Source: a virus (lineage: Duplodnaviria; Heunggongvirae; Uroviricota; Caudoviricetes). From it: DNA of 10,281 bases. A program made the position numbers and the translations under genes. Below the pieces are notes generated by a model. It was not told where the DNA came from, did not search any database, and was given only the letters and a program-made list of their open reading frames with translations. Location: IMG/VR virus record IMGVR_UViG_2547132275_000009. The stretch is one strand, 5' to 3'. Positions within the stretch are counted from its first letter, which is position 1. Each line of letters starts with the position of its first letter. Positions 1-10,219 of this stretch are shown piece after piece.

Positions 1-1150
1 AAGGTATATTTCTTTTTTTAAGCTCACTTTCCATAGCTTTAAAAACAAATCTATTTCTACCTATAACAACAATTTTAGAGCAATCAATATCGCCCTCAAT
101 TTCTGGATGTCTTTTTAAATTCAGTATATGTTGAATGCTATCACAAACCCATATAGCTTCAGATTCTTCATCTGGTAAAGCATTAAAAGATTTATAGCCA
201 TCAAGAGCAGCATTAACACCAACTTGGCTATTTGGTTTTAATTTATTAGCTAATTCAATCACTGCTTTCGAAGATCTATAGTTCTCGTTTAAACAATAAG
301 TTTTAGGAGTAAAATCTTTCACGAATGATTTAATAAAATAATCTGATGATGAACCATTAAAACCATAGATCATCTGGTCACTATCACCAACCATCATGAC
401 ATCTTTTATTTTATCACCGCAGAGAACCTTTATAAATTCGTACTGAGCTCTGTTTAAGTCTTGTGCTTCATCAACAAATAAAGCAACGTATTTTTTTTGA
501 TATATTCTTGCTACCGATTCTTGATTTAATAGGATTTTATGTGCATATAAAAGTATATCATCAAAATCCACACCACCACTTTCCAATAAAGCAGACTGAT
601 AATCTTGATAAATATTCCAAATACGCGGATTGGAGCTGAATTTTATCTTTACTTCATCTTCAGTTAAAAGCTCTCTTTTAATAATAGAGAATACATTAAG
701 ATATTGACTTATAACTTTTTCACGATTGCGCTTTTCTCTAACGTCCTCAACATCTAAGTACTCATCAATATTAACCCCCTGTTCTCTTAAGGAATGTAGG
801 AAAACCTCCATCCGATCTTGGTCACGTTCAAATATATGTAATTCTTTTGGTAACCCAATAGTATACCCATAACTTTCGAGTACCCTTTGTGCAACAGAAT
901 GAATTGTAGCAATCCAAATCCTATCACGATTTTCTGAGCCATCATCTAACCTTTCAAGCATTTCATCTGCTGCTTTATTTGTGAATGTTAAAGCAACCAC
1001 ACTTCCTCTAGCAGAGTTATTAAGAATGAACCTAACCCTCTCAGTAAGCACTCTTGTTTTACCAGACCCTGCAGATGCAAGAACTTGTATAGCCCCTCCC
1101 ATAGGAGCTCTAACAACTTCAATTTGAGATTGTGATAAATTATCAATCAT
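1..1150 (-). CDS. gajB: UvrD/PcrA/Rep-like SF1 helicase, GajB-like; partial, C-terminus beyond window start
   Basis: Hand translation of the minus strand from ATG at 1150-1148 gives MIDNLSQSQIEVVRAPMGGAIQVLASAGSGKTRVLTERV (helicase Q motif plus Walker A AGSGKT) and later FVDEAQD (SF1 motif II, DExQ). No stop before position 1, at least 383 codons. Start overlaps the upstream gene stop as ATGA (1147-1150). Confidence 0.8.
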   Translation of the reverse strand, partial: MIDNLSQSQIEVVRAPMGGAIQVLASAGSGKTRVLTERVRFILNNSARGSVVALTFTNKAADEMLERLDDGSENRDRIWIATIHSVAQRVLESYGYTIGLPKELHIFERDQDRMEVFLHSLREQGVNIDEYLDVEDVREKRNREKVISQYLNVFSIIKRELLTEDEVKIKFSSNPRIWNIYQDYQSALLESGGVDFDDILLYAHKILLNQESVARIYQKKYVALFVDEAQDLNRAQYEFIKVLCGDKIKDVMMVGDSDQMIYGFNGSSSDYFIKSFVKDFTPKTYCLNENYRSSKAVIELANKLKPNSQVGVNAALDGYKSFNALPDEESEAIWVCDSIQHILNLKRHPEIEGDIDCSKIVVIGRNRFVFKAMESELKKRNIP

Positions 1151-2922
1151 AGCTCAAGCCATCCCCTAACTTTATTAAATGCAATAATAACAGATTCCGG
1201 AAGTAACTCCTCAATTCTCTTTCCATTTGCATTCTGTGCTAGAATCACTCCTAAATACCCTGCATAACTAGCTTTTGAGTCACGCATTTTTTCAATTATA
1301 GCACTATCTTGTAAAGCCTCTATTTCTCTTTTCTTGGCTTCTCGATACCGTTCATTAGGACTAGCTTTGGTTTCACTTAACACTAATGATTCAATTATTT
1401 CTTCACGAATATTTAACTCGTTGTATAACTCAGCTTCAATATCATTTGTTTCTTTGAGGAACTCTAAAGAGAAACAATCAGGATTCAATACGAGGCCATC
1501 TTCACGAACTAAACGTGCTACCTGACGGTTTATCTCACCATGAGTATCACCATCATTATCACTAATAATACAGACAGGGATACCTAAATTACTTGCAAGT
1601 TTAATGAATGGTGGGTAATTTTTACCACTGACACTTACACAGTTAACTCCAACACTAAACATCGTCCTACCGAAATACAATTCAAACATGGATGGTATTA
1701 ATTGTTCTTCTGTAACACCCTCACATAAAATTAAGGCTCGAGAGAAAAGCAACTCACCACGGGTTAACATTATCTCCCTTTTTAATGCATTTTTTTCATC
1801 ATGTTCAATTCTTTTCTTCAAACAATTTACTGTTACTCCATCACCTTTCTTTATGAATGATCTTATATCTTCTATCTCAGCCATTGCGCTCAGGTATGGT
1901 GAATGAGTACTCAGTATAATTTGTCCCTGAGATGATGATAACTGTTTAAACAAGGTTCTTTGTGCATTGGGATGTAGATGCGCTTCTGGCTCTTCAGCTC
2001 CAACAATTGGATGTAGCGCCTTATTTTCGAGCTCATGCCGTTCATGCATAAAGCTTAAAAACGATTGAACTGTAAGCATTGAAGCCCAACTTCTCGTCCC
2101 AGTGCCATGATATTCCATTGAAAATGAATGGTTTTCTTCATCTCCGAAATGTACTGTAAATTGCTTTGATAGATCTCGGATTTTTTTAGGGAAAGGAGTT
2201 ATTTCTGTGTGGCTTGATCCTAGAAATGATTGGTTTAACCCTTGAAGTGAATTTTTTAAGCTTTGAAGCGGCTCACTTCTACTCACTGCGGTTTCATTTA
2301 TTGAACTTATCATTTCTTCAAGTGCAGTAACATCTTCATCTTCATATTTAATATATGATAAGACCTTCCCTATATATGAGCTTTTATCTTTAAGCTCATG
2401 ATGTATATCCCTCTGAGCCTCAATACAAATATAGGGGATTGCATCAACTTTTGTTCTTACCTTTCTTCTCTCGTTGACAACAATCTCTTTCCATCCCTCA
2501 AACTCCCCCCATTCATTCAAATAATAACGTTGTGTATTAAACCCACCTTTTATCTCATCTGGCTGAACTTTTGTACGAATAGCCACAAACTCATGTCCAT
2601 TTGCATCTACTGCAATATTATCACCGAAAACATCAATCCATTTTTCGTCAAACTCTTCTGTTTTATTATAATGTTCATCCGTAGGTATTATTTTTAAGTC
2701 AACGATAACTTCATTAACTTTTAACCCAGAACTATCTATATGAAGATCTTCATCACTAAAGTAACGTTGGTAATCACCTAAAGCTAGTTGCAACGATTTT
2801 AGGAAGGATGTTTTCCCCGCATTGTTTGTACCTAACAAAACGGCAATACGTCCTAGCTCAACCTCAATTTCCTTTATACCTCTAAAACCTGAAATCCTAA
2901 CAGAATTTATAAGAATTGACAT
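1147..2922 (-). CDS. gajA: OLD-family ABC-type ATPase fused to C-terminal Toprim nuclease domain, GajA-like
   Basis: 591-aa ORF. N-terminal Walker A GTNNAGKTS, Walker B-like EEPEAHLHP, LSTHSP (H-loop-like). C-terminal Toprim glutamate in LILCEGVTEE and DxD motif IISDNDGD. Strong SD (AAGGAGGG) 9 nt upstream of the ATG. Followed with 4-bp overlap by a UvrD-like helicase, the Gabija / class 2 OLD arrangement. Confidence 0.85.
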   Translation of the reverse strand: MSILINSVRISGFRGIKEIEVELGRIAVLLGTNNAGKTSFLKSLQLALGDYQRYFSDEDLHIDSSGLKVNEVIVDLKIIPTDEHYNKTEEFDEKWIDVFGDNIAVDANGHEFVAIRTKVQPDEIKGGFNTQRYYLNEWGEFEGWKEIVVNERRKVRTKVDAIPYICIEAQRDIHHELKDKSSYIGKVLSYIKYEDEDVTALEEMISSINETAVSRSEPLQSLKNSLQGLNQSFLGSSHTEITPFPKKIRDLSKQFTVHFGDEENHSFSMEYHGTGTRSWASMLTVQSFLSFMHERHELENKALHPIVGAEEPEAHLHPNAQRTLFKQLSSSQGQIILSTHSPYLSAMAEIEDIRSFIKKGDGVTVNCLKKRIEHDEKNALKREIMLTRGELLFSRALILCEGVTEEQLIPSMFELYFGRTMFSVGVNCVSVSGKNYPPFIKLASNLGIPVCIISDNDGDTHGEINRQVARLVREDGLVLNPDCFSLEFLKETNDIEAELYNELNIREEIIESLVLSETKASPNERYREAKKREIEALQDSAIIEKMRDSKASYAGYLGVILAQNANGKRIEELLPESVIIAFNKVRGWLEL

Positions 2923-3039
2923 ATATTCATTCCCTCCTTGATTTTATGACATATACATTCCGAATAAATGTAATAATTCTGTTATCCAGATTATCATTTG
3001 CGGAAAATAAAATATAGTATATCCCAACCCTGCAGCGCA

Positions 3040-3058
3040 ATGCTCTCCCCGCCACGCC
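3040..3058. other. cos-like cohesive-end site of the satellite (P2/186/P4 type)
   Basis: ATGCTCTCCCCGCCACGCC matches the reverse complement of the phage 186 cos 19-mer (GGCGTGGCGGGGAAAGCAT, from memory) at 18/19 and the P2/P4 cos at 16/19. Sits exactly at the AT-rich cargo to GC-rich core transition, downstream of psu. Confidence 0.55.
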
Positions 3059-3150
3059 TGCCCGCTTAAGAGGTCGCTTTTAATGCAGGTGCATGAACGG
3101 CCTCAGGCCGCACCGGTACTGGTGTTGCGTGGGATAAAAAATACGGGGAT

Positions 3151-3183
3151 TTGCATGCAAAGCCATGCACCTTATGGATGCAT
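3151..3183. terminator. GC-rich hairpin (AGCCATGCA ... TGCATGGCT) with T6 tail; possible terminator downstream of psu
   Basis: 9-bp inverted repeat with 9-nt loop followed by TTTTTT on the plus strand; on the minus strand (the psu operon strand) the T tract is weaker. Strand assignment ambiguous. Confidence 0.35.
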
Positions 3184-3231
3184 GGCTTTTTTCGGGAAAA
3201 ATAGCGGAATTTTCGGGGATTTTTTTGCGTG

Positions 3232-3798
3232 CTAGCGTGCGACCAGTTCTGCACGTCGGCGGGTGTAAATCAGGTTCTGTGCTGGGGTGAATTTCTCGCG
3301 ATTATCATCCCGCGAAGCCGCATCAGGCCTGAATCCGATGGCCGTTAAAATATCGCTGTCATGCGCGGAATAATTAATTTTTTCACCTGCGGCCAGCCAC
3401 ACCGACAGGGCTTCACGCAGATAATCAACCGAGTGCTGCATGGCGCTCTGCTTTACTGCGGGAAGCTGTTTGTGATATCCCATCAGCTCAGGTGCCAGCG
3501 TGGCGGCCAGCTCCGCGCCGTGCTGCTGCATAAAGTCATGGAGCCGGTTTCGGATACTGATGTGCTGCACCTCCTCATGTGAGCGGATATAGTGACCGGC
3601 GGCCTGATTAATTTCCCACTTTTTCACGTCGATATTGTCGCGCAAATCCTGCATTCTGCGCGGAATTTGTTCGTCACCGGCAAGGAGCTGTTCACGGTAT
3701 TCCCGTTCAAGGTCTGCCAGTTCGGCTTTACGTTTCAGCCAGGTGTTTTTGTTCGTCTGACAGGCCTCAAAGGCCTGCTGTATGGTCACAGTGGTCAC
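3232..3798 (-). CDS. psu: Psu (polarity suppression / capsid decoration protein), P4-like
   Basis: 188-aa ORF with recognisable similarity to P4 Psu (HISIRNRL, DSDILTAIGFRPD, REKFTPAQN). Last gene of the sid-delta-psu order. SD AGGAG 9 nt upstream; ATG 15 nt after the delta stop. Confidence 0.85.
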   Translation of the reverse strand: MTTVTIQQAFEACQTNKNTWLKRKAELADLEREYREQLLAGDEQIPRRMQDLRDNIDVKKWEINQAAGHYIRSHEEVQHISIRNRLHDFMQQHGAELAATLAPELMGYHKQLPAVKQSAMQHSVDYLREALSVWLAAGEKINYSAHDSDILTAIGFRPDAASRDDNREKFTPAQNLIYTRRRAELVAR

Positions 3799-3813
3799 GT
3801 GTCTCTCTCCTGA

Positions 3814-4053
3814 TTAATGCCGGAACGGCGAGCTGTAGCAGCCCTGTACTTTACGCGGCGGTGGTGGTGTCACCGGGGCGGGGTCGGTTTTCTCCGGTGC
3901 GGCACGTATCACACCGTCAACCGACTCGATGGTGCGGAAAGTGGCCGAACATTCGATATTGGTACACTGGTGATAACGCTGTTTGACGTTTTCCGACAGA
4001 TACCGGCTGGTACGGACGTGCGCGGTCTTTTTGCAGAACGGACAGTGAAACAT
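3814..4053 (-). CDS. delta: Ogr/Delta-family zinc-finger late transcription activator (single-domain, 79 aa)
   Basis: MFHCPFCKKTAHVRTSRY...RYHQCTNIECSATF carries the Cys-x2-Cys ... Cys-x4-Cys pattern and close similarity to P2 Ogr. Positioned between sid and psu as in P4. SD GAGGG upstream. Confidence 0.85.
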   Translation of the reverse strand: MFHCPFCKKTAHVRTSRYLSENVKQRYHQCTNIECSATFRTIESVDGVIRAAPEKTDPAPVTPPPPRKVQGCYSSPFRH

Positions 4054-4056
4054 AAT

Positions 4057-4800
4057 TCAGCCCTCTGCCTGTTCGTGGTCTTTTGCGGCCAGTTCAGCGG
4101 CAAGCTTCATCCGTCTGGCCGGGCTTCTTAACAGCGCCATATCAACCCCGGTTATGACCGGGCGATTCATGCCCGTTACGGACAGGACCGGCTCCTGCTC
4201 CATATCAAAATGATACAGGGCTGACTGCATATTCAGGGCATCACCCAGCTCACGGGTCACGGTCGCACGCGGCGAGGTTTCCCCGCTCATTTCCAGCGAC
4301 CGTATACGCAACAGAAAGGCACGTAACAGTGCGGGGCTGATACCGGTCAGCGCCTTCTTCCACTCGCTGTTGGCGTAAGTGGTGAACGCTTTTTCATGGG
4401 CGCTGATATAAGCAGTACCGGAGGAGCATGCGCCAAGCATGGCGTGGCTTTTGTCTTTCTCCAGCTCGGTAATCAGACCGGTGAACTCATCAGCCAGTTC
4501 GCGGCTGGCGATACGTTTACTGTGTTCAGCTTTCAGTTCAGGAGTGAGGTTGCCGCGCAGGGTTCGAAAGCGGCTGCGCCAGTCCTGTTCGGCCTGTGCA
4601 CTTTCACTGAGCGCGGTCTGTCGTTCCTGCTCACAACGCTGAATGGAAGCCTCAATGTCGCTGAGTTTACCCATGCTGGCCGTGTGTGCATCTTTTGCTT
4701 CGTTAAGTGCGGCCAGCGCACCGGCAATGCGTTGTTCCGCGCCTTCATCCTGTTTACTGATAACGGTCTGCATGGCTTTGATAATGAGTTCGGGTTTCAT
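4057..4800 (-). CDS. sid: Sid (capsid size determination, external scaffold), P4-like
   Basis: Position between the Delta box and delta, and Sid-like sequence. I place the start at ATG 4800-4798 (MKPELIIKAM, SD GGAGAG 8 nt upstream, 247 aa) rather than the track start at 4866, which would overlap the Delta-box promoter. Confidence 0.75.
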   Translation of the reverse strand: MKPELIIKAMQTVISKQDEGAEQRIAGALAALNEAKDAHTASMGKLSDIEASIQRCEQERQTALSESAQAEQDWRSRFRTLRGNLTPELKAEHSKRIASRELADEFTGLITELEKDKSHAMLGACSSGTAYISAHEKAFTTYANSEWKKALTGISPALLRAFLLRIRSLEMSGETSPRATVTRELGDALNMQSALYHFDMEQEPVLSVTGMNRPVITGVDMALLRSPARRMKLAAELAAKDHEQAEG

Positions 4801-4872
4801 GTTCAGGCTCTCCGTGTGTTCAACCTGAAATGATTCTGACGCCTCCTGCACAACAACACGATTCATTGCCGT

Positions 4873-4890
4873 TGTCAGAGTGCTGGCACA
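4873..4890 (-). promoter_or_regulatory. TGT-N12-ACA dyad (Ogr/Delta activator box) of a Psid-like late promoter
   Basis: TTGTCAGAGTGCTGGCACAA contains an exact TGT-N12-ACA. Its centre lies about 81 nt upstream of the proposed sid ATG, consistent with a box near -55 and a short leader. Confidence 0.55.
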
Positions 4891-4968
4891 AACAGACCTT
4901 AAAAACCGGCTGGCCAGAGGAAGGTCGCAGGAAAACCTTACTCACCGTTTGTTTTTTTACTTATAACT

Positions 4969-5071
4969 ATTCACCACTGTTCACCTTAAATAAAAAGATA
5001 AGTAATACAGTGAGTTAAGAGGTGAACAGTTGAAGATCTGACTGTTCACCGTCTGTTCACCACTGTTCACC
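4969..5071. repeat. Cluster of TGTTCACC iterons (ori-like, alpha-protein binding sites)
   Basis: Exact TGTTCACC at 4978-4985, 5043-5050, 5054-5061, 5064-5071 (last three phased 10-11 bp apart), inverted copy GGTGAACA at 5021-5028, partial ATTCACC at 4969-4975. Same octamer as in the crr-like region after alpha. Confidence 0.6.
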
Positions 5072-5170
5072 CTCCTGTTTTTTCAGCCAGTCAGTTACTT
5101 AGATTTTTTAGCGATTAAAAAGCATATATATATAAATAAAAGTAATCATCGCTTTGCCAAAGAATTATCA

Positions 5171-5210
5171 AGGATTGCCAACGATTGTCAGAGATTGCCA
5201 CTGTTTGCCA
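5171..5210. repeat. Four phased 10-bp repeats (AGGATTGCCA, ACGATTGTCA, GAGATTGCCA, CTGTTTGCCA); candidate regulator binding array
   Basis: Head-to-tail 10-bp periodicity, consensus nnGATTGCCA, plus an additional TTGCCA at 5154-5159, in the divergent promoter region upstream of the alpA/vis-like gene. Confidence 0.4.
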
Positions 5211-5349
5211 TTCACCTGTTAACGGTTTGTTGTGTGAGATTTCACTGCAAAATGACTTGTTGCCCTGAGGGAAAATATTCACAAAATAGAGAGCTACCCG
5301 AAGCCGGACGGACACGACCGGCACTGTATGGACTTTGTGAGGTAGCCCG

Positions 5350-5616
5350 ATGCACACCGCTTTTTCTTCCCCGTCTTCTGCTCCTGCCGCGCCGCTGATG
5401 CCGGTTTCTGATACCGTTCACGAACGCTTTATCCGTCTGCCCGAAGTGATGCATCTGTGCGGCCTGTCCCGCTCGACCATTTACGACCTCATCAGCCGGG
5501 AAGCCTTCCCGAAACAAATCTCCCTCGGCGGCAAAAACGTGGCGTGGGCGCAGTCTGAAATCACTGCATGGATGGCGGATCGCATTGCCGAACGTAACCG
5601 GGGCTATGACGCATGA
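5350..5616 (+). CDS. alpA: AlpA/Vis-family helix-turn-helix regulator (phage excisionase-like fold)
   Basis: [49 protein letters not shown] matches the AlpA/Vis family pattern. SD GAGG 6 nt upstream of the ATG at 5350; an alternative internal start at 5398 would give 72 aa. Confidence 0.7.
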
Positions 5617-5651
5617 TGATGACCGTTCGGCAAACAGCCCCTTTTTCTGGC

Positions 5652-5681
5652 TTGCTTCTTTTCGCCGTTTCCAGGTATAGT
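5652..5681 (+). promoter_or_regulatory. Candidate sigma70 promoter (TTGCTT -N18- TATAGT), PLE-like, driving the immunity leader and replication operon
   Basis: -10 is 5/6 to TATAAT, -35 is 3/6 to TTGACA, 18-bp spacer. Lies just downstream of the alpA stop and about 25 nt upstream of the seqA-like box. Confidence 0.3.
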
Positions 5682-5710
5682 TTTCCCGCTGTCGCAAAAT
5701 CGGCAGCCGG

Positions 5711-5960
5711 GCGTAGGAACCCGAGTTACTCAATGGCGACACCGGACGCGCCATGCGTCTTTTTTTACGTCGTTGCTCAGGCACACCCATTTTTCGGGCT
5801 GTGGTGTTTACACCTTAGCCCCTGTCAGATAATGGTGATCCGGGCGGGGCAGCCTTCGGGCTGGCCGGTATTCATTGAGGCCGGTATTCCTACCCCCGTT
5901 CGGGTCACCACCCATGAGCGTAGGAACTCCGGTGGTGGCAATAACCGCTACTCAATGGAG
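5711..5960 (+). ncRNA. Candidate P4 CI-RNA-type immunity region: seqA-like (5711-5738), seqB/cI-like core (5862-5895), seqC-like (5918-5960)
   Basis: Direct repeats GCGTAGGAAC ... TACTCAATGG at 5711-5736 and 5918-5958. Between them, TTCATTGAGG ... ATTCCTAC (5871-5893) carries CATTGAG and TTCCTAC, complementary in antiparallel bipartite fashion to CTCAATG and GTAGGAA of both flanking boxes. Also an 11-nt tandem repeat GGCCGGTATTC at 5863-5873 and 5879-5889. Confidence 0.45.
5745..5767 (+). terminator. Short GC hairpin (GACGC-GCCAT-GCGTC) followed by T7; candidate immunity/attenuation terminator in the leader
   Basis: 5-bp GC-rich stem, 5-nt loop, then TTTTTTT at 5760-5766. Overlaps an alternative pairing ATGGCG/CGCCAT that involves the 3' part of the seqA-like box. 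Confidence 0.4.
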
Positions 5961-5969
5961 GTTGCCACT

Positions 5970-6164
5970 ATGGCTACGACCCTCACCCCGTCACACCCGC
6001 AGTTTGTCTTTGTATTTGCCGCTGTTCGTCGCGCAGACCGTAAACCCCGTATTTGTATGCTTCGCACCGTTGCCGGTGATGAGCACGCCGCACGCCTTTC
6101 TCTTGTTCGCGATTACGTCCTCTCGTTCGCTGGCCGCCTGCCGGTTGCGGAGGTGCGCGCATGA
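5970..6164 (+). CDS. Hypothetical small protein (64 aa), first gene of the replication operon
   Basis: ATG at 5970 preceded by GGAGG 9 nt upstream; stop overlaps the next ATG as ATGA. This is an internal start of the 183-aa track ORF, whose upstream part covers the structured leader. Confidence 0.4.
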
Positions 6165-6388
6165 GACACACCACCATTACTGCCCGTGACCTCGAATGTC
6201 TGGAGCATATGCGCAATGTCGGCCAGCTCGTCGGCGACCTGATGCAGGTGCAGGACTGCGCCACCGTTCGTCGTGACCCGGCGCAGCAGTTACAGCTCAC
6301 CTCCGTGATTTACCTCATGACCGCCCAGCTCGACGGCGTGGTCGAACGCTGCAATCAGCAGTGGCTGACCGGGGAGGGTAACGTATGA
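6161..6388 (+). CDS. Hypothetical small protein (75 aa)
   Basis: Translationally coupled on both sides (ATGA overlaps at 6161-6164 and 6385-6388). Codon usage consistent with the neighbouring alpha gene. Confidence 0.5.
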
Positions 6389-6705
6389 AAAAGCCATTAC
6401 CACCCGTATTACGCGCCGCGCTGTATCGTCGCGCCGTGGCCTGTGCATGGCTGACCCTGTGCGAACGCCAGCACCGCTACCCGCACCTCACCCTCGACGC
6501 GCTGGAAAGCGCCATTGCCGCCGAGCTGGAGGGCTTCTACCTGCGCCAGCACGGCGAGGAAAAAGGCCGCCAGATTGCCTGTGCCCTGCTGGAAGATTTA
6601 ATGGAAGCCGGACCACTCAAAGCCGCCCCGTCGCTGTCCTTTCTCGGGCTGGCCGTGATGGATGAGCTTTGCGCCCGTCATATCACGTCGCCGGTACTGC
6701 ACTGA
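6385..6705 (+). CDS. Hypothetical protein (106 aa) immediately upstream of alpha; possible positional equivalent of P4 cnr (unverified)
   Basis: ATGA-coupled start; stop 14 nt before the alpha start. Size and position recall the P4 orf upstream of alpha, but I cannot confirm sequence similarity. Confidence 0.5.
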
Positions 6706-6719
6706 GGGAGAAAATAACG

Positions 6720-9053
6720 ATGAAAATGAACGTAACAGAAACCGTAAAACAGGCGTGCGGCCACTGGCCGCGCATTCTCCCTGCGCTGGGTGTGAAGGTG
6801 ATTAAAAACCGCCATCAGTCCTGCCCGGTATGCGGCGGCTCCGACCGCTTTCGCTTTGATGATAAAGAGGGGCGCGGGACGTGGTTCTGCAATCAGTGCG
6901 GCGCGGGTGACGGGCTTAAGCTGGTAGAAAAAGTGTTTGGCGTGACCCCGTCAGAGGCCGCCGGGAAGGTGAATGCCGTGACCGGCAACCTGCCGCCGGT
7001 TGCCCCGGAAGTGATTGCGGTCGCAGAGGCTGAAACTGAGGCCGACCGCAAAGCGGCCGCCACGATGGCCGTAAAGCTCATGGAGAAAGCCCGCCCGGCC
7101 ACCGGCAACGCCTACCTCACCCGCAAGGGGTTCCCCGCTCTGGAATGTCTGACGCTCACCGTCATGCATAAAACCGGCGGCGTGACGTTCCGCGCCGGGG
7201 ATGTGGTTGTCCCGCTGTATGATGATACCGGTGCACTGGTTAACCTTCAGCTTATCAATGCTGACGGTCTCAAACGAACCCTGAAAGGGGGGCAGGTCAA
7301 AGGGACATGTCATGTCATCGAAGGGAAAAAACAGGCCGGAAAACGCCTGTGGATTGCAGAGGGGTATGCGACCGCACTCACCGTGCATCACCTGACCGGG
7401 GAAACCGTCATGGTGGCGCTGTCCTCCGTGAACCTCCTTTCTCTGGCGAGCCTTGCCCGTCAGAAATATCCGACCTGTCAGATTGTCCTCGCCGCCGACC
7501 GTGACCTTAACGGCGACGGCCAGAGTAAAGCCGCTGCGGCCGCAGATGCCTGTGAGGGCATTGTTGCCCTGCCGCCGGTGTTCGGTGACTGGAATGATGC
7601 GTTTATGCAGAAAGGTGAAGAAGCCACCCGGAAAGCCATTTATGACGCTATCCGGCCACCGGCGCAAAGTCCGTTCGACACCATGAGCGAGGCGGAATTC
7701 ACCGCCATGAGCGCCAGCGACAAGGCTTTGCGGGTGCATGAGCACTACAGCGAAGCGCTGGCGGTGGATGCTAACGGCCAGCTCCTGTCCCGCTATGAAA
7801 ACGGCATCTGGAAAAATATCCCTGCCGCCACTTTTTCACGGAATGTGGCTGATTTATTCCAGCGCTTACGCGCCCCGTTCTCGTCAGGGAAAATTGCCTC
7901 GGTGGTGGAGACCCTGAAACTGATTATTCCGCAGCAGGATACACCGGCGCGCCGTCTGATTGGCTTTCGCAATGGGGTACTCGATACCCAAAGTGGCCTG
8001 TTCAGCCCGCACAGTAAATCGCACTGGCTGCGTACGTTGTGCGACGTGGATTTCACCCCGCCGGTGGAAGGGGAAACGCTGGAGACGCACGCGCCGAACT
8101 TCTGGCGCTGGCTCGACCGTGCGGCCGGTAAAAGTCCACAAAAACGCGACGTGATTCTGGCTGCGCTGTTTATGGTGCTGGCGAACCGTTACGACTGGCA
8201 GCTCTTTCTCGAAGTCACCGGTCCCGGCGGGAGTGGCAAAAGTATTCTGGCTGAAATCGCGACCCTGCTTGCCGGGGAAGATAATGCCACGTCAGCCGAT
8301 ATCGACACACTGGAAGACCCGCGCAAACGTGCATCCCTGATTGGCTTCTCGCTAATCCGTCTGCCAGACCAGGAAAAATGGAGCGGCGACGGCGCAGGGC
8401 TTAAGGCCATCACCGGCGGCGATGCGGTCTCAGTTGACCCGAAATACCAGAACCCGTACTCAACACATATTCCGGCAGTGATTCTGGCCGTGAACAACAA
8501 CCCGATGCGCTTCACCGACCGCAGCGGCGGTGTGTCACGTCGCCGGGTGATTATTCACTTCCCGGAACAGATTGCCCCGGAGGAACGCGACCCGCAGCTC
8601 AGGGATAAAATTGCGCGCGAGCTGGCCGTCATTGTGCGCCAGCTTATGCAGAAATTCAGCGACCCGATGACCGCCCGCGCACTGCTCCAGTCGCAGCAGA
8701 ATTCCGATGAGGCGCTCAACATCAAGCGCGATGCAGACCCGACATTTGATTTTTGCGGCTATCTGGAAATGCTTCCGCAGACCAACGGGATGTTTATGGG
8801 GAATGCCAGCATCATCCCGCGTAATTATCGTAAATATCTCTATCACGCGTATCTGGCCTATATGGAGGCTAACGGCTACAGGAACGTGCTCAGCCTGAAA
8901 ATGTTCGGGCTGGGGCTGCCCATGATGCTGAAAGAGTACGGCCTGAATTATGAGAAGCGGCACACCAAGCAGGGGATACAAACCAATCTGTCGCTGAAAG
9001 AGGAAAGTTACGGCGACTGGCTGCCAAAATGCGACGACCCCACTGCGACATAA
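6720..9053 (+). CDS. alpha: Alpha protein: bifunctional primase-helicase with origin-binding C-terminus (P4 alpha-like)
   Basis: 777 aa from ATG 6720 (SD GGGAG 9 nt upstream; track ORF begins at an upstream in-frame ATG at 6669). N-terminal Zn-binding CPVCGG...CNQCG, Toprim motifs LWIAEGYATAL and LAADRDLNGDG, helicase Walker A VTGPGGSGKSILAE. Followed by its cognate iterons. Confidence 0.9.
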   Translation: MKMNVTETVKQACGHWPRILPALGVKVIKNRHQSCPVCGGSDRFRFDDKEGRGTWFCNQCGAGDGLKLVEKVFGVTPSEAAGKVNAVTGNLPPVAPEVIAVAEAETEADRKAAATMAVKLMEKARPATGNAYLTRKGFPALECLTLTVMHKTGGVTFRAGDVVVPLYDDTGALVNLQLINADGLKRTLKGGQVKGTCHVIEGKKQAGKRLWIAEGYATALTVHHLTGETVMVALSSVNLLSLASLARQKYPTCQIVLAADRDLNGDGQSKAAAAADACEGIVALPPVFGDWNDAFMQKGEEATRKAIYDAIRPPAQSPFDTMSEAEFTAMSASDKALRVHEHYSEALAVDANGQLLSRYENGIWKNIPAATFSRNVADLFQRLRAPFSSGKIASVVETLKLIIPQQDTPARRLIGFRNGVLDTQSGLFSPHSKSHWLRTLCDVDFTPPVEGETLETHAPNFWRWLDRAAGKSPQKRDVILAALFMVLANRYDWQLFLEVTGPGGSGKSILAEIATLLAGEDNATSADIDTLEDPRKRASLIGFSLIRLPDQEKWSGDGAGLKAITGGDAVSVDPKYQNPYSTHIPAVILAVNNNPMRFTDRSGGVSRRRVIIHFPEQIAPEERDPQLRDKIARELAVIVRQLMQKFSDPMTARALLQSQQNSDEALNIKRDADPTFDFCGYLEMLPQTNGMFMGNASIIPRNYRKYLYHAYLAYMEANGYRNVLSLKMFGLGLPMMLKEYGLNYEKRHTKQGIQTNLSLKEESYGDWLPKCDDPTAT

Positions 9054-9090: not shown

Positions 9091-9104
9091 TGACCATTAT
9101 CACA

Positions 9105-9400
9105 GGGTGAACAATCCACTGTTCACCCTTCACCGTATATTCACCCTGTATCACCATGAAATTATTGATAAAAAACCAGAGGTGAACAGTGTGAACAGTA
9201 AAACCTGAAAAAACTTTTTATCCCTCCACCACATCGCCTGACCGGGCGCATCCAGAGCGAGAAAAAATCACAAAGGTGAAGAGTCGACTGTTCACTCTTC
9301 ACCAACTCATCACCATTTATCTTTATGATTTAAAATAGAAAATAAGCATGGTGAACAGTGTGAACAGTTAAATGCAAAAAAACTTTTTTTGAGTATGATG
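9105..9400. repeat. crr-like cis replication region: two ~120-bp direct repeats each containing TGTTCACC/GGTGAACA iterons
   Basis: Repeat 1 about 9105-9230, repeat 2 about 9273-9400. GGTGAACA at 9106, 9181, 9350; TGTTCACC at 9120; degenerate copies at 9190, 9289, 9359. Near-identical tail GGTGAACAGTGTGAACAGT(A/T)AA..AAAAAACTTTTT at 9181-9228 and 9350-9399. Confidence 0.65.
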
Positions 9401-9446
9401 TAGCTCTCCATACTTTATGGAAAGATCCAAGTTAGCTGAAAGCCTC

Positions 9447-9465
9447 ACCAAGACAGCACGTTAAT
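9447..9465. promoter_or_regulatory. Perfect 7-bp inverted repeat CACGTTA-ATTCG-TAACGTG, operator-like, 30 bp upstream of the 166-aa ORF
   Basis: Exact palindromic arms with 5-bp spacer located between the crr-like repeats and the ORF start; a second inverted repeat (GAGTATG ... CATACT) lies at 9401-9425. Confidence 0.25.
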
Positions 9466-9494
9466 TCGTAACGTGTTAAGCAAAAGGGAATTTT

Positions 9495-9995
9495 ATGGGG
9501 ACTACTTTGCTTCAAGAAAACCATGAAAAAATTTTAAACATACTAAATGAAGCTAAAGATGTGGCGCTAAGGTATTACAAATTAACCAATAAGCCTCTCG
9601 GAATCACTGGAGAAATAGCTGAACATGAAGCTGCAACTCTTCTCGGGTTGTCACTATGTTCAGCACGTCAGTCCGGATACGATGCGACTGAGATTTTGGA
9701 CGGGAAAGAATATAGAGTTCAAATCAAAGGTCGATATATGCCTGATCCTAAAAAAGTCTCTGCGAGAATTGGTGCTATTGATATATCTAAGCCATTTGAT
9801 TCTGTTCTTTTAGTTTTGCTTGATGAAAATTATGATGCTTTTGCCATGTATGAAGCATCACGAGATGTAGTAGTCGCAGCTCTTCAAGCTCCGGGGTCAA
9901 AGTCTAGAAATGAGCGAAATCAGCTAGGCATAGCAAAATTCAAGTCCATTAGCCGTCTCCGCTGGAGCAAGGTTGTTGAACCTGAGATCCTTTAA
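9495..9995 (+). CDS. Hypothetical protein (166 aa) in an AT-rich islet; function unassigned, possibly a PD-(D/E)xK-like fold
   Basis: Clean ORF with a GGGA-type SD 6 nt upstream, no competing ORF, composition clearly more AT-rich than the satellite core. Motif string EIAEHEAATLLG ... GYDATEILDGKEYRVQIKGR is compatible with a nuclease core (E ... D ... Q/E-x-K) but this is only pattern-level inference. Confidence 0.6.
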   Translation: MGTTLLQENHEKILNILNEAKDVALRYYKLTNKPLGITGEIAEHEAATLLGLSLCSARQSGYDATEILDGKEYRVQIKGRYMPDPKKVSARIGAIDISKPFDSVLLVLLDENYDAFAMYEASRDVVVAALQAPGSKSRNERNQLGIAKFKSISRLRWSKVVEPEIL

Positions 9996-10219
9996 TTGGT
10001 ACACGTTTAGGTACACACCTGAAAGTTGAATACGGAAAAATTCTTTATATTTAACGTGTTGATTAATTTATTCAGACTCCGCCAGCCCACCAATCATGAT
10101 TGGACGGTGTAAGGACAACACCAACAAAAACAGGAAGTTAGAAGTCTCAGCAAGACACCGACCAGACGGTGAGGAGACATAAAAGGATACGCAAAGGAGC
10201 CGCGGCTCCTGGTGATATG

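Follow-up and report, generated by a model that had tools for sequence, protein, structure and literature searches.

A P2/186/P4-family cos site adjoining a predicted Gabija cargo in a P4-like satellite

The segment from 3033 to about 3190 of the window (the whole stretch of 10,281 nt analysed here) is very likely the cos packaging site of a P4-like satellite, with a defence cargo abutting it. This architecture was already published in 2022 for P4-like satellites, and the window represents one more instance of it, with a cargo that had been catalogued. The position of cos defines where the packaged satellite genome begins and ends, which is useful for annotation, and to judge from sequence Gabija would be here a mobile cargo that spreads with a phage satellite. 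The finding also touches the question of how cassettes are exchanged so precisely beside cos, which was left unresolved in a 2026 NAR study (PMC13586616).

The satellite and its cargo

Most of an integrated P4-like satellite, of the Escherichia type, is contained in the window, together with 265 bp of host DNA. Pfam, BLASTP and Rfam indicate that the P4 gene order (psu, delta, sid, alpA, the epsilon/Ash region and the alpha primase) is kept, and the satellite gene set is complete except for int, which is located off the window. Among 5,426 complete E. coli genomes searched by megablast, that of strain MARGA_3 gave the best match (93% coverage, 95.8% identity). The features found on both sides of cos are the following:

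1-1150, minus strand: gajB, UvrD-like helicase, N-terminal part of about 383 codons, cut by the window end (PADLOC GajB, 3.9e-176)
1147-2922, minus strand: gajA, 591 aa, OLD-family ATPase with TOPRIM nuclease (PADLOC GajA, 6.9e-246)
2923-3032, minus strand: AT-rich gajA leader and promoter region, 110 bp, GC 0.29, the first cargo DNA past cos
3232-3798, minus strand: psu (Pfam Psu, 8.4e-87)
3814-4053, minus strand: delta/ogr-type zinc finger, 79 aa (Pfam Ogr_Delta, 8.6e-21)
4057-4866, minus strand: sid-like gene (BLASTP against P4 Sid, 31% identity, E = 5e-28)
3232-4866, minus strand: helper-exploitation operon made of psu, delta and the sid-like gene
5350-9053, plus strand: regulatory and replication module with alpA, Ash/Icd, the isrK and C4 RNAs, DUF5375 and the alpha primase-helicase (Pfam, Rfam)
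9099-9219 and 9273-9388: two diverged direct repeats of about 116-120 nt, downstream of alpha
9495-9995, plus strand: DUF6998 gene, 166 aa (PADLOC mREase_II, 1.2e-100)
9994-10016, plus strand: attR core AATTGGTACACGTTTAGGTACAC, right end of the integrated satellite, one copy of the exact 23-nt repeat that flanks the element in MARGA_3

The cargo genes gajA-gajB encode a predicted Gabija defence system. GajA has Pfam matches to AAA_15, DUF2813 and OLD-like_TOPRIM and is identical to WP_097433377 of MARGA_3 in 589 of 591 residues, and the gajB product matches the Pfam family UvrD-helicase (3.2e-60). The 4-nt overlap between gajA and gajB is taken from the MARGA_3 annotation, the complete gajB being known from MARGA_3 only. 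GajA also matches the PADLOC Old model (1.6e-42); P2 carries an OLD-family ATPase-nuclease gene, old, beside its own cos on the opposite side (P2 31620-33593), and the satellite has the OLD-family GajA beside its cos.

In the regulatory and replication module, Pfam detected Phage_AlpA, Phage_ASH, DUF5375 and primase-helicase domains. Within the Ash/Icd-type ORF, Rfam detected isrK (70.9 bits) and a C4 antisense RNA (81.3 bits) at 5688-5915 on the plus strand; this is the P4 CI-type immunity RNA region, and the immunity module looks intact. Between the Ash/Icd gene and DUF5375 there is a 75-aa ORF (6161-6388, plus strand) that has no Pfam match. A 75-aa protein of unassigned function, without counterpart in P4, has been described in the epsilon-alpha region of 61% of P4-like elements (PMC8628076).

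The direct repeats downstream of alpha contain repeated GGTGAACAGTGTGAACAG-type motifs, and their position is like that of the 120-bp crr repeats of P4. Between attR and these crr-like repeats lies the DUF6998 gene, the stop codon of which overlaps the att core. The mREase_II model that it matches corresponds to a type II methyl-directed restriction enzyme. The segment of about 600 bp that spans 9391-9995 is present in the window and missing from its closest relative MARGA_3, and in strain XH990 the DUF6998 slot contains an AbaSI-family restriction endonuclease. The location of the window gene corresponds to the minor hotspot between primase and att site described for 7% of P4 systems (PMC13586616).

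The cohesive end, its core and the psu-side flank

The elements that make up the packaging site are listed here:

3033-3087, minus strand: P2/P4-family cos core, 55 bp
3040-3058, minus strand: 19-nt cohesive-end sequence GGCGTGGCGGGGAGAGCAT
Between 3059 and 3058 on the minus strand and between 3039 and 3040 on the plus strand: predicted staggered nicks, placed according to the annotation of the 186 and P2 records
3033-3039, minus strand: cargo-side heptamer beside the nick, TGCGCTG in the window, with consensus TGCGCGC
3084-3087, 3090-3093, 3156-3159, 3166-3169 and 3179-3182: five TGCA boxes on the psu side, conserved at fixed offsets
3159-3189: inverted repeat, perfect over 11 bp (AAAGCCATGCA / TGCATGGCTTT), whose stem reaches 12-13 pairs on folding; a T6 run follows on the plus strand

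The 19-mer ATGCTCTCCCCGCCACGCC was confirmed at 3040-3058, and its minus-strand reading is GGCGTGGCGGGGAGAGCAT. The initial annotation had described it as nearly identical to the P2/186-family cohesive end, and the alignment bears this out, with 18/19 positions identical to the cohesive end of 186 (GGCGTGGCGGGGAAAGCAT) and 16/19 to that of P2 and P4 (GGCGAGGCGGGGAAAGCAC). The cohesive ends of 186 and P2 are bases 1-19 in the GenBank annotation, and the first 19 bases of P4 are those of P2. Read from 3058 to 3040, GGCGTGGCGGGGAGAGCAT is a G+C-rich 19-nt sequence of the form GGCG(A/T)GGCGGGGA(A/G/T)AGCA(C/T), and it is the sole match in the window at up to 3 mismatches.

We have considered that the 19-mer could be a chance GC-rich match at a compositional boundary, unrelated to packaging. 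Short GC-rich strings do recur, and 2 of 200 shuffles gave one at up to 3 mismatches; however, only 0.01 matches were expected by chance, 36 further core positions and the five TGCA boxes are conserved with 186, P2 and P4, the position beside psu is the same as in P4, and 80 psu-linked IMG/VR contigs contain the identical 19-mer. The conservation of the flanks effectively refutes a chance match, to which we give a negligible probability.

That conservation was one of the points on which the initial annotation had made its cos assignment depend. The 55-bp block shares 47/55 positions with 186, 44/55 with P2 and 42/55 with P4. Beyond the 19-mer, conservation covers 29 nt towards psu (TGCATTAAAAGCGACCTCTTAAGCGGGCA) and, of the 7 nt towards the cargo, the first 5; the core departs from the family consensus only at its two outermost bases on the cargo side. 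The 29, 19 and 7 conserved positions add up to 55, which would place at 3033-3087 the "55-bp core" around the cohesive end that PMC5694545 and PMC9594776 cite from Ziermann and Calendar (1990). In a BLAST comparison with phage records, the last base of P4 (11624) aligns adjacent to window position 3059, and dozens of P2-like phages match the window at about 3010-3125. The 19-mer and its flanks together support the assignment of 3040-3058 to a cos site of the P2/186/P4 family. A structural-RNA or hairpin explanation of the cos core was dropped, its folding being unremarkable (z = +0.58).

The cohesive-end variant of the window is the majority type among psu-linked cos sites. An identical 19-mer was found in 21 of the 37 psu-linked loci of the species-genome set described below and in 97 classified IMG/VR contigs, 80 of them psu-linked and 17 portal-linked. 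The G at position 14 (window 3045) occurs in 23/37 psu-linked and in 0/31 portal-linked loci of the species-genome set. A satellite-specific G14 is nevertheless ruled out by the 17 portal-linked IMG/VR contigs with the identical variant; this end variant is enriched in satellites, not exclusive to them. These 17 contigs also mean that P2-like contigs with the same cos variant exist, and they are possible helpers.

The sequences that flank the two nicks are related to each other. The consensus heptamer is an inverted copy of GCGGGCA (3059-3065), located at the other nick, and the flank pair GCGGGCA / GCGCGCA (the latter as reverse complement) forms an imperfect inverted repeat in 72/84 loci. 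Imperfect inverted nick flanks are what a two-fold symmetric nicking enzyme would require. The window heptamer keeps 4/7 positions of this symmetry; on the plus strand the heptamer reads GCGCGCA in five relatives, CCGCGCA in MARGA_3 and CAGCGCA in the window. Since TGCGCGC is kept in 79/80 psu-linked IMG/VR loci, the efficiency of cutting at TGCGCTG could be reduced.

The packaging site exceeds the 19-mer, with about 125 nt more towards psu, up to about 3182. Counting from the first base of the 19-mer, TGCA is present at offsets -29, -35, -101, -111 and -124 in most psu-linked loci and in most of the other (P2-like or unclassified) loci, and the window has all five boxes. Per 111 nt there are 4.4 copies in psu-linked and 3.7 in other loci, compared with 0.42 in shuffles, i.e., an enrichment of about 10-fold, and with 0.27 on the cargo side. 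The sequence pattern makes the TGCA array a candidate for the terminase-recognition (cosB-like) part of the site. A literature search of limited reach found no earlier description of TGCA boxes at cos.

The inverted repeat at 3159-3189 overlaps three of these boxes, the one at 3156-3159 by a single base and those at 3166-3169 and 3179-3182 entirely. Its fold reaches z = -4.3 on the minus strand and -4.0 on the plus strand, and 0 of 200 shuffles were as stable. The hairpin probably ends transcription downstream of psu and insulates against transcripts that enter from the cargo. A scan of 2800-3400 for consensus terminators found nothing, and its 8-nt loop limit is one likely reason for missing the 3159-3189 hairpin.

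The junction between core and cargo

The initial annotation had described an abrupt change from AT-rich cargo to GC-rich core at cos, and this change appears as a sharp step in the GC profile. The GC content is 0.348 in the cargo (1-2922), 0.291 in the leader (2923-3032), 0.523 in 3033-3231 and 0.562 in the satellite core (3232-9053), and in windows of 30 nt it passes from 0.33 at 3000-3029 to 0.70 at 3030-3059. The proposal that cos marks the exact junction has to be adjusted by a few bases: the boundary between core and cargo is indeed there, but the break lies 5-7 nt past the edge of the 19-mer, at 3033-3035.

Comparison of genomes by megablast placed the break in the same position. E. coli P4-like elements with other cargo match the window from 3035 rightward, and the match continues leftward in only a few Gabija carriers. 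A focused query with 2740-3340 matched 94 complete E. coli genomes, of which a spread sample of 60 rows was inspected; the match starts at 3035 in most of these rows, with 3031, 3024 or 3004 as the start in a few, and a match to the cargo side only was seen in none of them. The gajA leader, in particular, had no cargo-only match outside P4-like elements among the sampled rows, and no homology to P4-likes with other cargo. The divergence of other-cargo elements at 3035, together with the PADLOC hits of GajA and GajB, agrees with the earlier placement of the defence module in the cos-proximal variable region.

We have also aligned six loci at the junction. The 19-mer and the next 5-7 nt are common to all of them, and the sequences are unrelated beyond. 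The cargos of the five relatives are a 480-aa hypothetical protein; an AAA ATPase with an HNH protein; a HEPN protein; a DEAD-box helicase with hypothetical proteins; and an ATP-binding protein with a hypothetical protein. The offset of the junction past the 19-mer is 7 nt in the family, 5 nt in the window (TGCGC followed by TG) and 6 nt in MARGA_3. In this Gabija lineage the outermost one or two heptamer bases are replaced (TGCGCTG in the window, at 3033-3034; TGCGCGG in MARGA_3, at locus position 11033), and the replacement of the cargo may have reached into the cos core.

A scan of one genome per species with a 47-nt search pattern yielded 86 cos sites, 37 of them with psu upstream. Over the 86 loci the information content is about 1.4-1.9 bits from about -30 to +26 and then 0.27-0.33 bits, psu-linked and other loci behaving alike; in the 37 psu-linked sites it is 0.27 bits in the 10 nt past +26. 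Part of the conservation inside the 47-nt pattern results from its construction, and independent evidence comes only from its N positions and from positions that it does not cover; neither the heptamer nor the far upstream region nor the downstream collapse is due to the pattern. The GC content of the psu-linked loci is 0.32-0.38 downstream of cos vs. 0.53-0.56 upstream.

These data fit a model in which the satellite DNA, once excised at its att sites, would circularize and become a substrate for the terminase of a P2/186-like helper. The enzyme would nick both sides of the 19 bp at 3040-3058, generating the 5' cohesive ends GGCGTGGCGGGGAGAGCAT. Recognition appears to be asymmetric, with the 29-nt core and the TGCA boxes up to about -125 on the psu side and the 7-nt inverted TGCGCGC on the other. 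If only these 7 nt are needed on the cargo side, the DNA from +27 would be free to vary, and thus the defence locus can start a few bases from the nick; the one-sided location of the recognition elements would likewise explain that the hotspot of P2-like phages, on the other side, starts only about 150 bp away. Once linear and packaged, the genome would have gajA-gajB as its left-terminal block, with transcription directed away from cos, and Gabija would travel with the satellite whenever a helper mobilises it. The cleavage positions, the binding of terminase to TGCA and the mobilisation are predictions from sequence comparison.

An alternative to tolerated variation from +27 is that the cargo was captured at the DNA end made by the terminase, where the left cohesive end would have undergone end-joining or recombination. 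The breakpoints fall within 0-2 nt of the heptamer end across many independent cargo types, and 1-2 nt of the heptamer itself are replaced in the Gabija lineage, as such a capture would leave it. P2-like phages also keep a cos-side hotspot, but on the opposite side and further away (PMC9122126), and the mechanism of exchange has been stated to be unresolved (PMC13586616). However, the same pattern is to be expected if the 55-bp core is under purifying selection, whatever the mechanism of recombination, and neither microhomology nor duplicated ends were found at the six aligned junctions. We regard this capture as unlikely. A broader proposal, which we hold to be quite unlikely, makes the cos nick the entry point for new cargo, foreign defence cassettes joining the terminase-generated left end; it would explain why dozens of unrelated cassettes start 0-2 nt from the heptamer, as well as the 1-2-nt bite of the Gabija lineage. 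It has a related possibility, i.e., that the G14 variant and the erosion of the heptamer tune which helpers package the element. Tolerated variation beside a one-sided packaging site remains our preferred reading of the junction.

Ends of the element, state of the satellite and related systems

The attR core at 9994-10016 has one exact copy in the window, where 0 are expected by chance. In MARGA_3 the att repeats, at locus positions 5951 and 17356, have a spacing of 11,405 bp; between them lie int, gajB, gajA, cos, and psu through alpha, with int directly to the left of gajB. The integrase and attL of the present element lie off the window and are known only from MARGA_3, which is 96% identical. 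No tRNA was found at the att site in the window. The initial annotation had proposed that the defence module would be packaged together with the satellite, and the position of attR, with attL and attR enclosing both Gabija and cos in MARGA_3, agrees with a cargo inside the satellite unit: being within the att-bounded element, Gabija would be packaged with it. The size of the whole element, with its off-window left part estimated from MARGA_3, is about 12.0 kb vs. 11.6 kb for P4.

It could be argued that the site is a true cos by descent in a satellite that is no longer packageable, because its heptamer is eroded, its genome is too large or a compatible helper is missing, and that Gabija belongs to a fixed chromosomal island. 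The outer part of the heptamer departs from consensus by 2 nt in the window and by 1 nt in MARGA_3, the additional DUF6998 gene makes the element exceed P4 by about 0.4 kb, and decayed relatives exist, such as that of XH990, in which psu and int have internal stops and alpha is truncated. Against such a relic, no core ORF in the window is shortened and the Pfam matches are full length as well, the scores of the C4 and isrK RNAs lie well above threshold, attR is intact, and all positions of the 19-mer, the 29-nt psu-side core and the five TGCA boxes are kept; moreover, heptamer deviations also occur in a few of the other psu-linked loci. We therefore consider a relic very unlikely and maintain that the window contains the packaging site of a P4-like satellite.

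The closest known system is P4 itself, whose cos (X51522 / NC_001609; junction base 11624/base 1) is likewise found immediately downstream of psu. P4 and the window have in common the 55-bp core (42/55), the terminator hairpin and the TGCA boxes, with 42/50 identical positions in the hairpin stretch at -150 to -101. Across cos, P4 begins its non-essential/defence genes gop-beta-cII where the window has Gabija. The P4 19-mer, of the P2 type, is 3 positions off that of the window. The delta product is a single 79-aa zinc-finger unit in the window, compared with the 166-aa form of P4, and the att site differs from that of P4 both by its sequence and by the ssrA-neighbourhood context of the relatives.

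Phages 186 (NC_001317) and P2 (NC_001895) have inverted nick flanks and TGCA boxes in common with the window, and represent the type of helper whose terminase would cut the window site. They have the portal gene on the side where the satellite has its cargo, and the hotspot of P2 (old/tin) is located on the opposite side of cos, starting about 150 bp from the nick.

The lambda cos site offers a more distant comparison. It comprises the nicking site cosN and, on one side of it, the terminase-binding site cosB, and its overhang is 12 nt. The window site would resemble it in having staggered nicks within partly symmetric flanks, recognition on one side and a free other side, although there is no sequence relationship between both sites and the overhang is 12 nt in lambda vs. 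19 nt here.

With respect to the cargo, Rousset et al. (2022; PMC9122126) described the variable defence locus of P4-like elements between psu/cos and int, directly beside cos and in either orientation, and in P2-like phages a hotspot near cos that is on the opposite side and further off. Their Table S1A lists WP_097433377 and WP_097433376, the GajA and GajB of MARGA_3, and Table S1B labels them as Gabija; the comparison of the window with this pair refers to GajA, the window GajB being partial. Nothing substantive differs between the window and that hotspot, apart from the two non-consensus heptamer bases and the small extra att-proximal cargo gene. The description of the P4 hotspot has been repeated and extended by De Sousa and Rocha (PMC8628076) and by the 2026 NAR study (PMC13586616). 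The replacement of DNA beside cos by retrons in a 186-related prophage is attributed to Dodd and Egan (1996) where PMC5694545 cites them.

In MARGA_3, the end of a P2/186-like prophage (locus 1-5669) adjoins the attL of the satellite. This prophage end carries genes for a replication endonuclease, a Dam methylase, CII, Fil, a CI repressor, an integrase and an HNH protein. This strain thus has a potential helper in tandem with the satellite.
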